64,000 nucleotides of DNA, taken from the sequence record PZ445530.1; one strand, 5' to 3'. Each line of letters starts with the position of its first letter. The first letter of the stretch is position 1. Positions 1,388 through 60,286 of the stretch are shown piece by piece. This DNA comes from a phage. Both the position numbers and the translations under genes were made by a program. The notes under the pieces were generated by a model, which saw only the letters and a program-made list of their open reading frames with translations, had not been told where the DNA came from and made no database searches.

Positions 1388-3455
1388 ATTTATGGCATCT
1401 GCATACAACCGTTTCGGTGAGCCAAACCCGAAAGCAACTAAGTATAAAAGTGGGGGAAGTGTGAAACGAGACTATCGTGATGAAAAAGAAGTTGAAACTG
1501 TAGAGACTGTTTTAGAAAATACTAAAATTGTCCCTGTCCCACAACAAAATATCGGTCTGATGGCTGCACAATATTTTGGTGTGCGATCAGCATTGTCACA
1601 AGAAGACGGTGTGACAGTCACTGCAACATATTTCCCATATTACGACCGCTACGGAAATCTGTCCGGTTTCAAAAAGCGTGACTGGACTATTCCTAAAGAA
1701 CAAAGGGGCCACTTCTCCGTTGTTGGCATCGTAAAGGCCAACTCCCAGATGTTTGGTCAAAAGCTGTGTGCATCTTCCAACAACCGTAAGCAGATTAACG
1801 TTTGTGAGGGGGAAGGTGATGTTATTGCAGCATGGCAGGCTGCATATCAGATACAAGTAAAAGGGATTCTCACCAACGCTAAAGCCCCGGCAAAGGTGAA
1901 GCAGTGGGCTAAAGAAGTCCAGGACGGGATCGATGCAGTTATCAACGGTGGTGATCTGGCAGGAAAACCATGCCTGCCTTTTGTTGGAATTAACTGTGGA
2001 TGTGCAAACGCAGTAGATACTTTTGCAAACAATGAGAAGTTTATCCGTAGCTATGGAACAGTTGTGCTGGCAATGGATAACGATGCAGCTAACGAGGTAG
2101 AGAAGCAAAAACACGTCATTAAAGGTGTTGAGGCCACGCACAATATCGCAGCATTTTTGATGGCTGATAACGTTTACCACGTAGAATACCCTGGTGAAGT
2201 AAACGACCCTGACGGTGTAAAAGATATCCGAGACATGCTGAAGGCTAAAAAGCTGGAAGATATTGTCAACATGTTCCGGCATCCTGTTAAATATGTGCCT
2301 GATGCGGTGTCGGATTTAGAAGACTTCTCTATCGAGTCTTTGCGGAAAAAGACTTCCAACGGGGTAGATATCAGCGCAGAGTTCCCAAAACTGCAAAAAA
2401 TGCTAAAAGGCTTGCACAAAGGGACACTCGTAATGCTTACAGGTCCATCAGGTGGCGGTAAAACAACCGTAGCTAAAAAACTGGAACACTGTATTGCAAG
2501 ATACCTAATGGACCCGACATGCCCGAAGGCTGATGACTATGAAGAGGATGATCGTCTATGTATGATCCATCTTGAGGAGGACCCAGAGGAAGCAATTAAC
2601 TCCTTGTATGCAAACCAGTTAGGGTTTGATGTTAAAGAGTTTGTTGAAGATCCTAGCCAGTTTTTAACTGATCAAGAACACGCAGAGATTCACCAATCAT
2701 GGGCAAAAGCTGGAAAAATCAAAGTGTTCAAACATTTCGGGTCTATTCCGGTGGATGAGTTGATTACCAAGCTTAAGCAAATGGTTTGCCTGTACCATTG
2801 CCGTTATATTGTGCTGGATCACCTGTCCATGGTAATTTCAGGGCTTAATGTTAAGGATGAGCGAAAAGAACTGGACATGGCTATGACTCAGCTGGCTGCG
2901 TTTTGTAAGCAGTTTAACGTGTTTATCTTGGTGATCGCTCACCTCAAACGTACAGAGATTGTGCCTCCTAAGGACAAGGATGGTAACCCGTTACCTTTCT
3001 GGTATCCTGTGCGAAAAGAGAATTTGCGAGGATCGGCGGGGCTTGAACAGTTGAGTTGGGTAGTCATAGGTGTCGAGGCCGAAGAAATGGTGGATCGTTC
3101 TCGTGGACGTGTCCGTCTGGTAGGTCTTAAAAACCGTCCAGCAAAAACTCTAGGTATTGCTGACACTTTGGTTATGGACCCGCACACAGGTAAGTTCCAT
3201 GATGCCAGTAATTGGTACTGGGACAAAGAAATGCAAATGTTTACAGACGGAGAAGGTGGGGAGGTTGTTTGGAGACCTCAGGCTATGTTTGAGGATCAGG
3301 AGCATGCAGTTGTAGAAACACCTATGGGCAAGGTTGTGGCTGATAAGGTTGTAACTCCTACTGTTAAGCCTGTTGACACGCAGGAAGACCTCCAGTACGA
3401 TGATCCGTCCTCTGACCATGTTCCTGGTTTTGAGGATGATGAAACACCTTTTTAA
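1377..3455 (+). CDS. bifunctional DNA primase-helicase (T7 gp4-like)
   Basis: TOPRIM-like CEGEGD; Walker A GPSGGGKTT; DnaB-like C-terminal half; acidic tail ending FEDDETPF. Confidence 0.8.
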   Translation: MGSKFMASAYNRFGEPNPKATKYKSGGSVKRDYRDEKEVETVETVLENTKIVPVPQQNIGLMAAQYFGVRSALSQEDGVTVTATYFPYYDRYGNLSGFKKRDWTIPKEQRGHFSVVGIVKANSQMFGQKLCASSNNRKQINVCEGEGDVIAAWQAAYQIQVKGILTNAKAPAKVKQWAKEVQDGIDAVINGGDLAGKPCLPFVGINCGCANAVDTFANNEKFIRSYGTVVLAMDNDAANEVEKQKHVIKGVEATHNIAAFLMADNVYHVEYPGEVNDPDGVKDIRDMLKAKKLEDIVNMFRHPVKYVPDAVSDLEDFSIESLRKKTSNGVDISAEFPKLQKMLKGLHKGTLVMLTGPSGGGKTTVAKKLEHCIARYLMDPTCPKADDYEEDDRLCMIHLEEDPEEAINSLYANQLGFDVKEFVEDPSQFLTDQEHAEIHQSWAKAGKIKVFKHFGSIPVDELITKLKQMVCLYHCRYIVLDHLSMVISGLNVKDERKELDMAMTQLAAFCKQFNVFILVIAHLKRTEIVPPKDKDGNPLPFWYPVRKENLRGSAGLEQLSWVVIGVEAEEMVDRSRGRVRLVGLKNRPAKTLGIADTLVMDPHTGKFHDASNWYWDKEMQMFTDGEGGEVVWRPQAMFEDQEHAVVETPMGKVVADKVVTPTVKPVDTQEDLQYDDPSSDHVPGFEDDETPF

Positions 3456-53298: not shown

Positions 53299-54434
53299 AT
53301 TGCTCCAACATTTCTAAGAACGTTAACAAGTTTTGTTTGATCATTGAATGTTCGCTTCATATACAAACAGTCAAAAATTATACTCATCCATTGACCTACG
53401 GAAATTCTACGATCAACACCATTGAAGTCAGTATACTTAACAACACCTTTCGGGAACCACTTCTTGTACTGATCAATAATAGCCACCCACATCTCCTTTG
53501 GAGTGCTGCACTGAGACAGTAGGTAGAATGCTGAGGCATCCCCGAACTTACCCTTACCGATAAGTCCTTGATACGGCTTGATATTGTCGGCAGAGTCACC
53601 ACACAGCATTTGGTATCCGAAGAACAGCATTCCGTAACCACCAACCTCTCCATTAGGCTTCATGAAGATGTTCCCCATACCGTTATCGATCAGCATAGGG
53701 GTTTCCCTTACAAAATCTCCCTTATCGTTTCGCATGGGATCGAACACAAGCCCCGGCAGTGTTCTTTGGTCCTTATCAATAGAGATAATAAACTTGTTGA
53801 ACTTACCTGTTTTTTGGTAGTGGTTCCAACCTTCAAATTGCTGGATAGCTAACCAGTCGTCAGCCTCGATACCGTTGATCACTTGAGCATTATACTGCTT
53901 TTGGAGATACTGTCTTGCATCTCCAAGCAGCAGTGGTCGAAGAGTATTGTTACGGTTGGCTTTATATCTTTCCGGCATGGGAAGATCTAGTCTGAAATTA
54001 CCTGTGCCTCCAAGTACCCCCACGCACCGATCTTCCGGAATACCGAGATAATTAAGGACTGCATTAGCTTTACACTTAATTGTGTGCAAGCAGTTCTCTA
54101 CAGGATCAGGGGTTTGGATATCCAAGACATCGAAATCTTCTCGTGTCCACGGAATAAACTCCTTGCCAGCCTTTTTACATGCAGCTTCACGGTTGGTATT
54201 CTCAGCTTTTAACCAACCACCAACGGTGTTCTTCTGCCGCCCCCAGAACTCTGTTCGTGTTTTAAACATCTTCTTACGTCCGGAGGCTTTGTGTGTTACC
54301 TCAATTGTCCTTTTTTCACAACTTGCTGCAGCTTGATATGCAACCTGATCGAAGTCATAATAAACTATAGCGTCAGGTTCAAGAAGATCAGCCAGACAAT
54401 CTATGGACTCAATAAGTGGATATTCTCTACTCAA
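53295..54434 (-). CDS. 5'-3' exonuclease / flap endonuclease (FEN)
   Basis: GIEADDW, SIDKDQ and CGDSADNIKPYQGL match the EADD / DKD / GDxxDNIPG FEN motifs. Confidence 0.75.
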   Translation of the reverse strand: MSREYPLIESIDCLADLLEPDAIVYYDFDQVAYQAAASCEKRTIEVTHKASGRKKMFKTRTEFWGRQKNTVGGWLKAENTNREAACKKAGKEFIPWTREDFDVLDIQTPDPVENCLHTIKCKANAVLNYLGIPEDRCVGVLGGTGNFRLDLPMPERYKANRNNTLRPLLLGDARQYLQKQYNAQVINGIEADDWLAIQQFEGWNHYQKTGKFNKFIISIDKDQRTLPGLVFDPMRNDKGDFVRETPMLIDNGMGNIFMKPNGEVGGYGMLFFGYQMLCGDSADNIKPYQGLIGKGKFGDASAFYLLSQCSTPKEMWVAIIDQYKKWFPKGVVKYTDFNGVDRRISVGQWMSIIFDCLYMKRTFNDQTKLVNVLRNVGAI

Positions 54435-54735
54435 AGACCCTCCTGTTAGTTATTCTGCAAGATGGTTGGATGCTGTAATGGAATGCATCATCACTCTCTG
54501 CAATAAGTGACTCAACATCCCAATACTTTTCAAAAAGGAACGGATTAGACCCCCAGTGGTGGGTTATTTTCATCAAGGAGTCTGATATCATATAACCACA
54601 GATCTTAATTACATCGCCAGGTTGAATTGTGTTTTCATGAAGGTTGCTTGCCTTCTTCAGAATCATACCTTTATGATTCTCGTTTGCATACAACTGGACA
54701 ATATCTTTATCTTCAACAATAAAAATTTTAAGCAT
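54427..54735 (-). CDS. hypothetical protein
   Basis: 102-aa ORF. Confidence 0.45.
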   Translation of the reverse strand: MLKIFIVEDKDIVQLYANENHKGMILKKASNLHENTIQPGDVIKICGYMISDSLMKITHHWGSNPFLFEKYWDVESLIAESDDAFHYSIQPSCRITNRRVFE

Positions 54736-54794
54736 ATCTAGTTCTCCTAGTTTATAGATATCTGACCGATAATATCAGATTAATAACACTTTTG

Positions 54795-55088
54795 TCAAGA
54801 CTTTTTGGTCTTTCTTGGAGAGCTTTTTGTTGATCTTTTCCTTTTGTGGTAGATTCCAAGTGCAGCGTTTTCTTGGGCGCACGTTTTAACAGTTCTCAGA
54901 CAAGAACTTTCAGCTTTAGGCAGGTTTAACTCCCACCAACCAAGCCAGTAAAGTTCTGATTCAGACAACTGCTCAGATTCAGCCTTCCGATACAAGGATT
55001 GCATACCTCTGATGATGTCGTCCAGAGGTGTATCGAATACAAAAGCTGTCTTATCAAATTTCTCTTTTAAAGGTTTCTTAGCCATCAA
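54795..55088 (-). CDS. hypothetical protein
   Basis: 97-aa ORF. Confidence 0.45.
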   Translation of the reverse strand: MMAKKPLKEKFDKTAFVFDTPLDDIIRGMQSLYRKAESEQLSESELYWLGWWELNLPKAESSCLRTVKTCAQENAALGIYHKRKRSTKSSPRKTKKS

Positions 55089-55542
55089 GGTAACCCTCTA
55101 TCCACGAAAAGTCAGTCTTCCATTCTGGAACTTTACTAAGCTCACGCCACTCTGCAAAGCAGTCTCGGTAATACGCCTCTGCCATACCCTTGGTGATCTT
55201 ATTCACCTTAGCCAACTGACTAACTGCCTGAGCATACTTTCCACGGATATTTGCTAACCCAGGATGCACAGATGTGTGACAATCTGGGCACAACGCTATC
55301 AGTCCGACAAGCCGGATCACTCCCTCTTCGAAAGTGTAAAGTTCATGACACTCCACTGGGTGTTTGCTGCCTTTACCGCCGCACACCTCACAGGTGTAGT
55401 TGGCTTCTCTATAGCACTTCTTGCGGATCTTATCCCACTCACTCTTCTTTACAGCGTTTCGGAGGTTATTATACCAAGCTGTTTCTGGGATCAGTTGCAC
55501 AATAAGCCTGCGTTCAGACTTCATTAAACGTCCGTCTTCCAC
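55078..55542 (-). CDS. HNH nuclease-like zinc-finger protein
   Basis: CEVCGG...HPVECHELY...LCPDCHTSVH. Confidence 0.5.
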   Translation of the reverse strand: MEDGRLMKSERRLIVQLIPETAWYNNLRNAVKKSEWDKIRKKCYREANYTCEVCGGKGSKHPVECHELYTFEEGVIRLVGLIALCPDCHTSVHPGLANIRGKYAQAVSQLAKVNKITKGMAEAYYRDCFAEWRELSKVPEWKTDFSWIEGYLDG

Positions 55543-55551
55543 GTATCCCCC

Positions 55552-55758
55552 TTATTCAAAGAAATGGGTGCGAGGGCAGGAACCTGCCTCGCCTTGTTTC
55601 ACAAGCTCGTAGAGCTCACCTTGGCTTGTCTCATAAAGGCAAATACGTTTACCATTGTCCCGATATACATCGACAAGATACGCTGTTTCACCTGCAAACA
55701 CGACACCACAGGCCAGACATGCTGCCATGAACAAAATTGCCAACAGAAAATCTTTCAT
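55552..55758 (-). CDS. putative small lipoprotein/secreted protein
   Basis: signal-peptide-like MKDFLLAILFMAACLACG with possible lipobox Cys. Confidence 0.4.
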   Translation of the reverse strand: MKDFLLAILFMAACLACGVVFAGETAYLVDVYRDNGKRICLYETSQGELYELVKQGEAGSCPRTHFFE

Positions 55759-55826
55759 GGTTAAACCCTCCCTAACATTGTATGAGGTAACAATACCACG
55801 TCCGTGTGGTCATGTCAATGATACTG

Positions 55827-56525
55827 TTACAATCTTTCAGCAAGAGCCTTTGCGTAACACGCTTCAGCAGACTCTTTGGTGTCAAACCTGCCTAGCGTTT
55901 TTCCTCTGAAAGTTACTTTCCATTTGCCCCTATCTGCTTCAAATCTGACACCTCTAGATTTATCCCTCCCTAAAGGCTGTCCACGATATTCCCTGACAAA
56001 CGTGCCACTTTCAAAAGACTTTTGAGCAGCAAGGGCCTCTTCTAAGGTATCGTATTCTCCTAGGTCTTTCTTATAGTAATGACCTACCTTACCAAAAGCA
56101 GCATACCTTCCAGTTCTAGCATGAAAATATACACCCAAGTGTCCAGTGTTAGATTTAGGTATCTTGCGTGCCAGGCATCCGTCATCTGCCGCCTTTTTTG
56201 CGTTTTCTTCTGGTGTTAACAGTTGTAGGTTTTCTATCCTGTCATCAGCAACACCATCGGAATAGAAAAGTGGCTTTATGTGATCAACTTCGTACCCTTC
56301 TGGAATTGGTCCATAATGCATCTCCCACACCAATCTATGCCTGTAGTAATGCACGCCGCGATAGATTATATCCCTGTACCCGTCCATGTTAGTACATCCA
56401 GCCTCCTTTCCCATCAGTTGAGGTTTGTTTTTTGGTGGGGACTTCCAAAACAACCTTCCAGTGCCTGTATCGTATCTAAAGACACTCCACCAGTCAATCC
56501 CGTTACTCATCTGTAACAACTCCAC
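55827..56525 (-). CDS. HNH homing endonuclease
   Basis: HRLVWEMHYGPIPEGYEVDHIKPL...NLQLLTPEENAKK HNH signature. Confidence 0.7.
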   Translation of the reverse strand: MELLQMSNGIDWWSVFRYDTGTGRLFWKSPPKNKPQLMGKEAGCTNMDGYRDIIYRGVHYYRHRLVWEMHYGPIPEGYEVDHIKPLFYSDGVADDRIENLQLLTPEENAKKAADDGCLARKIPKSNTGHLGVYFHARTGRYAAFGKVGHYYKKDLGEYDTLEEALAAQKSFESGTFVREYRGQPLGRDKSRGVRFEADRGKWKVTFRGKTLGRFDTKESAEACYAKALAERL

Positions 56526-56991
56526 CTGCCTTCTTAAAGATCTCCAGCATCTTGTCTATACTTTCTGCTCGCTGATTGTACAGCTTTCCAGCCCCTGGCG
56601 GTGGTGGGAAGCTTGCCCAGCGGCTGCGGCATTTATAAATGGCCTGATGAATACGCCCTTCATCAATGTCGGCGAGAGCCTTGCACTCACGGATCAGTTG
56701 CAACGCAATCTTGTCCTGACTGTCAGGGCCAAAATCTGGTAATCCTAACTGTTTCATGTAGTGTTTAGCAAACTTCTCCAAAACCTGGTAACGCCCAGCA
56801 GCGGAGGAGGTAAGTTTAGCATTTAGCTTAACGTAAACACCGGGATGCTTGCTGTAATCGCTGAACAGCTTGCCTCCGACTATGACATCGTACCCCCGAT
56901 CCTTGGTAGGTTGTCTACCATTATCTGTGCCTTCCGAATATGCGATCATATCCAAGAAAGCTTTTCGTTGAACATTTTTATCAAGTTTCAT
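56503..56991 (-). CDS. endolysin, lambda R-like lytic transglycosylase
   Basis: near-colinear with lambda R: QRKAFLDMIAYSEGTDNGRQ...GYDVIVGG...FSDYSKHPGV...AAGRYQ. Confidence 0.8.
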   Translation of the reverse strand: MKLDKNVQRKAFLDMIAYSEGTDNGRQPTKDRGYDVIVGGKLFSDYSKHPGVYVKLNAKLTSSAAGRYQVLEKFAKHYMKQLGLPDFGPDSQDKIALQLIRECKALADIDEGRIHQAIYKCRSRWASFPPPPGAGKLYNQRAESIDKMLEIFKKAGGVVTDE

Positions 56992-57115
56992 TTTTCATAC
57001 TCTCCAGTTTACTCATAACTAACCCGATCAACAACACTGCATAGTGTGGTTATGTAGGTGCCAATTGAAAAACCATCATTCAATTGGCTACCGTTACCTA
57101 CTGAACCTCCCTACA

Positions 57116-58399
57116 TCATTCCAGCACCTCCCAAGTGTCTGGGTTAACATTTCGGACGCAGATACCGACAGGGAATTGGTAGTTGTTGTCTTCTGTCCTT
57201 GCTTGATATTTGAAGGTGACAAACTTGCCGATCATTTCCTGCATCCTGTCATAGCTACGCTCCTCGTGCGTGCCTTTCATCTTCATTTTAACAACAACAC
57301 CTTCCTTGTCAACACAGATAAGAACACCTTCATCATTCTTATCTTTCTCAACGTCAATAACTTTCACCTCTGCGTCGTTGAACTTTTTCCATTTCAATGC
57401 TTCAGATGTTCGCTGACCATACTCATATTTACCACAGAAGTTACGCATAATGGTACCTTCATATCCTTCAGACATAAATATACCAACAGACTCTTCGCAC
57501 CGATCAACCGTATATGCAAGCTCTGCATCAACAACCTTAATATGATCAAGCATCAAAGAAGTAATAGCACCGTTTGCCTCCATAAGATCCTTACAGCGAC
57601 CAGACTCTGTTTCAGGATCCCACCACACCTTATCGCTAGGAATATCGAAAATATGATACTCTAAGTCGTAGCTGCAGTACCCTCCGTAACGCAAATCATC
57701 ACGAACAGGCTCAACATCAACAGGAATGTCCACCTTGTTGAAGTTTTTGTATGTTGCTAAACCTGCTTTAATCGCAGCCTGACGGCGTTTTTTATCTGCC
57801 TTGTAGTCTTTATCGATCTCGGCCTGAATTTCTTCCTGTGTGCGCCACCGTTTAGCAAGAGACACTATTTTCTGCAAAGGAAGACCATGAATGTATAGTT
57901 CCCCATCAAGTTGTTTAATCCCAGTGGTAGAATGGAAAGAACGAAGTTGCTCTAAAAGCTTTCCTTGAATAGGGTAGGACTTATTACCACGGGAAATAAA
58001 TTTAGGCTCACCATTTTGGAAAACAACAAGCAGACGAAGGCCATCTAACTTACGCAAGATCCAGCAAGGTAATTTAAGTGCCTTGCCACGCTTCAGGTAG
58101 TCATGCACCAGCATGGGTAAAAGATCAACACCCTGCTCGCAATCTTCCATGTTTTCAACATACCCCAGACGGACTTGTTTTTCCCACTTGCTGATAGCCT
58201 CAAGCTCGGCCTGTTGCTCAGCTGTAGTCTCGTTGGCACGACCTACGTTCTTAGGTGTGCATACCGTCTCTTTGTACTGCAGTTTACCATCAAGCTTGCC
58301 AAACTCTACGATAACCTTATCACCATCCGTGAATACTTTCCACTGTTGGTAGCTGCCATCTTTATTCAGTGCGTACAGTGTTGTTTTGATCTGATGCAT
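57116..58399 (-). CDS. ATP-dependent DNA ligase
   Basis: motif I KLDGLR, motif IV EGYEGTIMR, motif V ALKWKKF. Confidence 0.75.
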   Translation of the reverse strand: MHQIKTTLYALNKDGSYQQWKVFTDGDKVIVEFGKLDGKLQYKETVCTPKNVGRANETTAEQQAELEAISKWEKQVRLGYVENMEDCEQGVDLLPMLVHDYLKRGKALKLPCWILRKLDGLRLLVVFQNGEPKFISRGNKSYPIQGKLLEQLRSFHSTTGIKQLDGELYIHGLPLQKIVSLAKRWRTQEEIQAEIDKDYKADKKRRQAAIKAGLATYKNFNKVDIPVDVEPVRDDLRYGGYCSYDLEYHIFDIPSDKVWWDPETESGRCKDLMEANGAITSLMLDHIKVVDAELAYTVDRCEESVGIFMSEGYEGTIMRNFCGKYEYGQRTSEALKWKKFNDAEVKVIDVEKDKNDEGVLICVDKEGVVVKMKMKGTHEERSYDRMQEMIGKFVTFKYQARTEDNNYQFPVGICVRNVNPDTWEVLE

Positions 58400-59752: not shown

Positions 59753-60286
59753 TTAAAGTTCCATAAAGTTTTCTACAGTTTCAATAAATGCTTTATCAGA
59801 GAAAGCGTCAACAGCACCGTTAAACCATACAGGGATCCCGCGATCCTCATATTGATAAAGGTCGCTACGTGAAATGCCACTTCCATCTGCACTCTGCGAA
59901 TCATACTTGTTTACAATCAGCAGTTTTGTGCCTTTACAAGTAGCAGGAAACAATTCCCAGTTAAAATTAATAACTGTGTTAGAACAACCTACCAGGATCA
60001 CCATATCATTGCTTGTGAGAGATGTCAACAGGTCATACATGTCTGTATACTTAGGAGCAACCTCACCGAAGAACACTACATTGGGCTTAACCCAGGTATA
60101 CTTGCCTGTATCTACCTCCGTGTATCCGATATTTTTAATTACATCATTACCTTCAGCATCTTCGTAGGTGATTTCAGGCAAATACCCGTGGACATGTAAA
60201 ATATCTTCATGTTTTACACCAGCACGCTCCAGCAAATCATCTACATTGGTAGTAAGGTTGATCACACGACCAGACCAGCGGGTCAT
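59753..60286 (-). CDS. Sir2-like (sirtuin-fold) protein, apparently lacking the N-terminal NAD-binding GAGIS region and the Zn-binding cysteines
   Basis: NVDDLLERAG, ILHVHG, KPNVVFFGE, MVILVGCSNTV match sirtuin motifs QNID.LH.RAG / LHG / RP.VV.FGE / LV(I/V)GTS. Confidence 0.45.
   Translation of the reverse strand: MTRWSGRVINLTTNVDDLLERAGVKHEDILHVHGYLPEITYEDAEGNDVIKNIGYTEVDTGKYTWVKPNVVFFGEVAPKYTDMYDLLTSLTSNDMVILVGCSNTVINFNWELFPATCKGTKLLIVNKYDSQSADGSGISRSDLYQYEDRGIPVWFNGAVDAFSDKAFIETVENFMEL

Follow-up and report, generated by a model that had tools for sequence, protein, structure and literature searches.

A probable homing endonuclease cassette next to the endolysin gene of some rV5-like phages

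RESULTS

Gene content of the endolysin locus

The window analyzed here is a 64,000-nucleotide stretch of phage DNA (sequence record PZ445530.1), in which we studied four neighboring genes and their surroundings. Over positions 54700-57100, the window is 100% identical to the Escherichia phages rV5_ev147, rV5_ev156 and nom, and about 120 further records of Vequintavirus (rV5-like) phages match this segment at 93-99% identity; we accordingly place it with the Vequintavirus coliphages on sequence grounds. The four open reading frames are located where the earlier note had put them, all on the minus strand, as are the other features of this locus described below. In the order of transcription, an ATP-dependent DNA ligase gene (57116-58399) comes first, followed by the endolysin gene (56503-56991, 162 aa), a 227-aa HNH gene (55827-56510), a 68-aa gene resembling rv5_gp086 (55552-55758), a 154-aa gene resembling rv5_gp087 that starts with GTG (55078-55542), and two genes of 97 and 102 aa. 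Beyond these lie genes for a 5'-exonuclease, a RuvC-like protein and EndoVII. The studied reading frames are real genes rather than chance occurrences, as their conservation across over 100 public phage genomes (11 for the 227-aa HNH gene) shows, and no paralogue of any of the four was found elsewhere within the window.

The endolysin is a lambda R-type lysozyme that matches phrog_90 and resembles lambda lysozyme (PDB 1AM7) over its full length, with residues 4-160 aligned at an E-value of 2.9e-49. It is the sole lysis gene here, embedded in a cluster of DNA-metabolism genes and not in a lysis cassette. The Rz-like spanin genes rv5_gp067/068 are annotated on the other strand about 10 kb away from the endolysin gene, adjoining the large terminase gene (PMC6658697, PMC6139136, PMC7344957), while the holin proposed by the authors of the rV5 study, gp129, is also encoded elsewhere in the genome (PMC3606486). 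Describing the locus as a lysis region, as the earlier note did, is therefore an overstatement.

A free-standing HNH gene between endolysin and promoter

The largest open reading frame for the first HNH gene runs from a GTG at 56525 (55827-56525, 232 aa), yet public annotations begin at the ATG at 56510 and give a protein of 227 aa, which is the likelier start. Read from this ATG, the gene shares 8 nt (ATGAGTAA) with the endolysin gene, stop codon included; the overlap is thus with the 3' end of the endolysin gene and not with its start, as had been reported. The protein scores 52.5 bits against Pfam HNH_3 (cut-off 24.8) and belongs to phrog_99 (E = 6e-49), and a further match to AP2 falls below the Pfam threshold (25.9 bits, cut-off 33.3). 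The H-N-N motif is intact (D76-H77...N94...N103), and the reading frame is full length in 11 out of 11 carriers. A PDB sequence search with this protein returned no match at E<=1, and its closest other homologues do not exceed 43% identity and are encoded at different loci of other phages. Public records already carry the label 'putative HNH/homing endonuclease' for this gene.

At the downstream junction, homology to genomes that lack the gene resumes at position 55822, four nucleotides past the HNH stop codon and just before the -35 box of a sigma-70-type promoter. This promoter, supported by a promoter scan, the rV5 annotation and alignment, is the equivalent of rV5 'P90' (TTGACA-17-TGnTATTGT, read from 55818 to 55790), and the insertion leaves it intact.

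Patchy distribution and flanking conversion tracts

The 227-aa gene is present, at 96% identity or higher, in 11 of about 121 close relatives. The alignments of the remaining relatives are split in two, leaving out about 700 nt, with flanks that are otherwise 95-99% identical. A single ICTV species, Vequintavirus murica, mixes carriers (isim and nimi) with non-carriers (naswa and Gotham), and the gene is also found in the species FV3. In the window, RudolfGeigy, nimi, ev168 and isim, the gene together with the adjoining endolysin tail is 99.9-100% identical while the flanks differ by 1-5%. The cassettes of FV3 and YN3 are about 96-97% identical, no closer than their backbones, and part of the distribution could reflect vertical inheritance within a clade.

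Phages isim, with the gene, and naswa, without it, show only 27 + 7 differences in about 9.5 kb of flanks outside the cassette. Their differences close to the cassette are clustered in two places. One is a short downstream conversion tract at 55702-55821, where 10 SNPs extend over P90 and the opening codons of the 68-aa reading frame. The other, at 56513-56650, is an imported endolysin 3' tract that is linked to the endonuclease gene in the alignments and 100% identical among the window, RudolfGeigy, nimi, ev168 and isim. Alleles without the gene fall into two types by their left end-points, one represented by JeffSchatz and bov10K2 and the other by rV5 and naswa.

Sliding identity to rV5 and to phage V18 reveals that the endolysin allele is a mosaic, with about 340 nt of rV5-type sequence at the 5' end and a V18-like 3' end. 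The foreign 3' end is about 100-140 nt long; the last 140 nt or so share roughly 50-55% identity with rV5 as compared to 78-88% with V18, whereas the remainder of the gene is 97-100% identical to rV5. The 3' tract contains, at 56513-56614, indels of 9 and 6 nt (WASFPPPPGAGKLYNQ versus WASLPGAGYGQ). In the encoded tail, the window and V18 have the insertion SFPPPPGAGKLY in common and share WASFPPPPGAGKLY in place of the lambda/rV5-type WASLPGAGYGQ. The V18-like tract accompanies the HNH gene in every case, as expected for co-conversion of a flanking marker, and we regard the endolysin of the window as a chimera whose 3' end appears to have arrived with the HNH gene. A donor having the identical tail without rV5-type 5' sequence was not found, the nearest alleles lacking the HNH gene (V18, JEP1 and EduardKellenberger) being about 80% identical. 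Since 56513-56614 is the only segment where the compared carriers and non-carriers always differ, the nuclease target or a determinant of immunity may be located there.

A different HNH gene, coding for 253 aa, occupies the identical position in 20 other Vequintavirus records, including 241Ecol014PP, DrSchubert, CM1 and SophiaRose. Within the HNH core, its product shares 35% identity with the window protein, and it likewise has an AP2 match below threshold. Of these records 241Ecol014PP alone was examined for its endolysin gene, which matches rV5 in the first 42 nt only, with homology returning at the P90 region. The site is thus empty in about 90 records, occupied by the 227-aa gene in 11 and by the 253-aa gene in 20. 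Because a second, different HNH gene is found at the same spot in these 20 records, the position just downstream of the endolysin gene appears to be a hotspot for endonuclease insertion.

The HNH domain with its intact motif, the sporadic presence at a fixed site and the flanking conversion tracts bear out the suggestion of a homing endonuclease insertion for the 227-aa gene. We consider it likely that this gene, of HNH_3/AP2 type, is a free-standing homing endonuclease cassette that has invaded the gap between endolysin stop codon and promoter in a subset of rV5-like phages, and that its 68-aa and 154-aa neighbors are residents of the locus. Two other accounts of the same data were weighed. 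The gene could be ancestral at this site and deleted in most lineages, so that the polymorphism records loss and not homing. The divergence of the FV3 and YN3 cassettes, about as large as that of the backbones, is compatible with such long residence, and loss is also what the homing cycle predicts in the end. We nevertheless find this improbable: the empty sites are precise and have a different, rV5/lambda-like endolysin 3' end with no deletion scar, different backbones have the cassette in identical form, isim and naswa make a near-isogenic pair, and the linked tail resembles the allele of another species, V18. Alternatively, ordinary homologous recombination between co-infecting phages could have produced the mosaic, with the HNH gene as an inactive passenger. 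Vequintaviruses are indeed highly mosaic, and the ligase region of rV5 also shows allele replacement. This account seems unlikely to us given the intact catalytic motif in a frame that none of the 11 carriers has lost, conversion tracts that are short and centered on the HNH gene, and two different HNH genes in one spot, a pattern typically seen at hotspots driven by endonucleases.

The 68-aa gene encodes a predicted periplasmic protein

The 68-aa protein is a member of phrog_4641 and is at least 95% identical across about 120 Vequintavirus records. Serratia phage Kashira and Salmonella phage SSBI34 have homologues of about 35% identity, with no endolysin gene adjacent in either phage. Searches of Pfam and NCBIfam gave nothing useful for this protein, and an exhaustive profile search with the family against 1.84 billion representative proteins produced only 10 hits. 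Among the hits, the multi-repeat proteins P0013, P0016 and P0017 were set aside, as they look like a resemblance between beta-hairpin repeats and not homology. The genomic context of distant homologues on metagenome contigs was uninformative.

By inspection of the alignments, residues 1-22 (about 55693-55758) form a signal peptide with the n-region MKD, a hydrophobic core and the cleavage site V-F-A|G. This site aligns with A-W-S|G, A-H-A|S/G, A-Q-A|S and A-E-A|A/S of the homologues, in keeping with cleavage by signal peptidase I after Sec export. When 10 relatives are aligned, the first 22 residues prove variable, and the invariant residues, including C40 and C61, are concentrated in positions 23-68. 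The mature domain of about 46 aa is predicted to adopt a four-stranded beta fold and probably contains one disulfide.

The earlier note had described this frame as signal-peptide/lipobox-like and proposed a lipoprotein, either a spanin remnant or a superinfection-exclusion protein. The signal peptide holds up; the lipobox does so weakly at best, since against the consensus [LVI][ASTVI][GAS]C with a conserved Cys the window protein reads M-A-A-C14. An outer-membrane lipoprotein, whether a spanin remnant or an exclusion protein like Llp or Cor, would be consistent with K2 in the n-region and with the sequence M-A-A-C14, which fits a relaxed PROSITE-type lipobox pattern. A Cys at position 14, however, violates the position rule, and homologues of 62-74% identity have M, V or L in its place or a Cys outside a lipobox context. 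Overall, Cys14 is lost in P0006-P0010, Kashira, SSBI34 and P0012-P0019, and every more distant homologue has a canonical AxA site in alignment with V-F-A|G. Instead of an adjacent or embedded i-spanin partner in a genome with no other spanin, as expected for an o-spanin, complete Rz-like spanins are annotated beside the terminase gene, and no endolysin gene adjoins the homologues in Kashira and SSBI34. The lipoprotein reading is therefore quite improbable, and the proposal of a spanin remnant falls with it. Because the AxA sites align with V-F-A|G and Cys14 is not conserved, we classify the product as a Sec-exported periplasmic protein predicted to be processed by signal peptidase I, and not as a lipoprotein.

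Two further roles were considered and set aside or weakened. The protein does not suit the part of the missing holin, having a cleavable signal peptide, with a short h-region in the homologues, and lacking a transmembrane segment that would be retained. The idea of a lysozyme inhibitor paired with the endolysin is made less attractive by the Kashira and SSBI34 homologues, which have no endolysin gene next to them.

The 154-aa gene is a conserved HNH-fold gene

The 154-aa protein has the motif CxxC...HPVECHE...CPxCH...H, with zinc-binding Cys pairs, a catalytic His and a beta-beta-alpha fold. A first scan of Pfam and NCBIfam gave weak or sub-threshold hits, none of them to HNH; in a permissive scan Pfam HNH scored 13.8 bits, below the curated cut-off of 21.4. 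Matches to HNH came only from PHROG families annotated as such. At 95% identity or higher, the gene is found in 119 records, which is essentially every Vequintavirus genome. Homologues of 37-57% identity are present in GAP31, PVP-SE1-like phages, KB57, phiTE, Hena1 and Pseudomonas phage nickie. The KB57 gene immediately precedes the exonuclease gene, and the homologues of SSBI34 and Kashira are also upstream of it, within the interval from ligase to exonuclease. The family extends to bacterial members (42-45% identity in Acaryochloris) and to fusions with DUF5710. Neither presence/absence polymorphism nor a flanking conversion tract was seen for this gene among the Vequintavirus records compared.

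Since essentially all relatives have it and the other Vequintavirinae lineages checked carry homologues upstream of their exonuclease gene, the 154-aa gene is best interpreted as a vertically inherited core gene and not as an insertion; its product may contribute to the processing of phage DNA together with the nucleases encoded next to it. A comparison of synteny with related phages, which had been suggested as a check on both HNH genes, hence separates them: the site of the 227-aa gene is mostly empty and bordered by conversion tracts, whereas the 154-aa gene is nearly universal, which speaks against the earlier view of it as a second homing insertion. That both are homing endonucleases which bracket, and perhaps mobilize, the small gene between them is very unlikely in light of this fixed and conserved position, even though several GenBank records name the 154-aa gene 'putative homing endonuclease' and its HNH fold, bacterial members and DUF5710 fusions suggest that it may descend from a mobile nuclease.

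DISCUSSION

The arrangement can be explained by a homing cycle. In a mixed infection, the nuclease would nick or cut the rV5-type allele that lacks the gene within the last 100 nt or so of the endolysin gene, and recombinational repair using the genome of the carrier would then introduce the endonuclease gene along with short stretches of the DNA on either side. The V18-like 3' end, with its two indels and many silent changes, would identify the lineage of the donor and presumably protects carriers from being cut. Because its ATG overlaps the endolysin stop codon, the HNH gene is probably expressed through read-through or translational coupling. The 68-aa gene would be transcribed from its own sigma-70-type promoter to give a Sec-exported, disulfide-containing periplasmic mini-protein, and the 154-aa gene would supply the replication and recombination module of the Vequintavirinae with a core nuclease of HNH fold.

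Free-standing HNH genes are abundant in relatives within the Vequintavirinae (PMC7344957). The proposed homing cassette described here resembles the free-standing homing endonuclease genes of other large lytic phages, such as T4 MobE, the Seg proteins and the HNH genes of Certrevirus CB7 (PMC7344957), in being an intergenic open reading frame beside a conserved gene, in its patchy occurrence among close relatives, in its short co-conversion tracts and in a carrier allele that has diverged at the expected target. It differs from them in its neighbor, which is an endolysin gene and not one for nucleotide metabolism or replication, and in its HNH_3 plus AP2-like architecture. Coliphage HNH-AP2 endonucleases, among them FV3 ORF083 ('similar to RTP putative HNH endonuclease') and the HNH genes of CAjan-like siphoviruses, belong to phrog_99 like the window protein and are 36-43% identical to it, but they are located at other loci and in other phage groups, while the window gene is confined to 11 records at 96% identity or higher. 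In contrast to McrA/GVE2-type HNH (beta-beta-alpha-Me) nucleases, the 154-aa core protein stays below the Pfam HNH threshold, has no invariant counterpart to the central Asn of H-N-H, and carries N- and C-terminal helical extensions of its own.

A strong sigma-70-type promoter combined with a periplasmic location suggests that the 68-aa protein probably acts early and on the cell envelope; superinfection exclusion as its role would be a guess. As a small, envelope-exported phage protein whose promoter type points to early expression, it is similar to T4 Spackle and Imm and to T5 Llp, with no similarity to them detected in sequence or fold and, unlike Llp, without being a lipoprotein. It is possible, if doubtful, that the gene represents a very small family, restricted to phages, of periplasmic beta mini-proteins that are exported by Sec, held by a disulfide bond and under sigma-70-type control, and that function as a new kind of early envelope effector (for instance in superinfection exclusion or in protection against lysis from without), unrelated in sequence and fold to Spackle, Imm, Llp and Cor.

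Taken as a whole, the locus is an example of ordinary, well-understood phage mosaicism, and the HNH label itself was already public. The present analysis contributes evidence that the 227-aa gene is mobile, describes a chimeric endolysin and a second occupant of the site, and reclassifies the two neighboring genes. For annotation, where rV5-like genomes have two genes labeled 'HNH/homing endonuclease', the results indicate which one is truly mobile, remove the lipoprotein and spanin-remnant lead, and flag a small secreted protein instead. They also offer an explanation for abrupt allele switches in the 3' end of the endolysin gene, and in another lineage of the whole gene, and they advise against basing trees on this locus. 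The carrier isim and the non-carrier naswa, Danish wastewater isolates from one deposit series, provide near-isogenic material for studying homing in a non-T4 myovirus, and RudolfGeigy and JeffSchatz from the BASEL collection form a similar pair.

Additional HNH and small genes around the endolysin

The intergenic site between the endolysin and gp086 (the rV5 name for the 68-aa gene type), which in the window holds the 227-aa HNH homing endonuclease, is occupied in 20 other Vequintavirus records by a distinct 253-aa HNH endonuclease gene. In Escherichia phage 241Ecol014PP, the region of this second gene spans positions 2023-3336 of the extracted locus (L026), equivalent to window 55823-56991, and the endolysin allele accompanying it has been replaced almost entirely. 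One gene further along, phage Gotham has an insertion, an additional 72-aa DUF7205 gene (1743-1961 of its locus, L027), that separates the 68-aa gene from the 154-aa HNH gene and lies between the equivalents of window positions 55542 and 55552. The span at this position is longer by the same ~220 nt in ECP26, ECP32 and ECP2309.

The 154-aa HNH gene (55078-55542) belongs to a large family that matches no Pfam model at threshold and whose members include DUF5710 fusions and cyanobacterial chromosomal homologues at 42-45% identity. Because the annotated ORF of the phage V18 homologue is truncated to 89 aa (903-1172 of the V18 locus, L006) and its tblastn match is split in two pieces, the V18 sequence indicates a frameshift, whether through an error in sequencing or because the gene is a pseudogene.

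Annotation of related records

Two small genes, at 54427-54735 and 54795-55088, are called ‘transposase’ or ‘transposase-like’ in the rV5 and FV3 records. Neither has a transposase domain; apart from PHROG family labels they match only PRS2_N, and that weakly, and the name appears to be a propagated annotation. A total of 19 MG0656xx records are titled ‘Campylobacter phage’ with C. jejuni as host, and their sequence at the endolysin/HNH locus matches rV5-like coliphages with 95-98% identity; these host labels look doubtful.

Ligase divergence and a gap relative to rV5

Across window 56992-58100, the ligase allele of rV5 (L021) is strongly divergent, much of it matching the window at about 64-79% identity; the other relatives are 95-98% identical to the window in the ligase region. 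The rV5 divergence is a further local allele replacement. About 2.08 kb of rV5 (NC_011041 66,224-68,301) is missing from the window at ~60274-60283, where the two sides of the junction overlap by 9 nt. Three rV5 genes lie wholly within this gap (ATPase gp077, RNA ligase 1/tail-attachment gp078, and gp079), and two more lose their beginnings to it: the Sir2-like gp080 is without its N-terminal ~77 aa, and phosphoesterase gp076 without its first codons. Window position ~60282 is a common alignment end for RudolfGeigy, isim and rV5.
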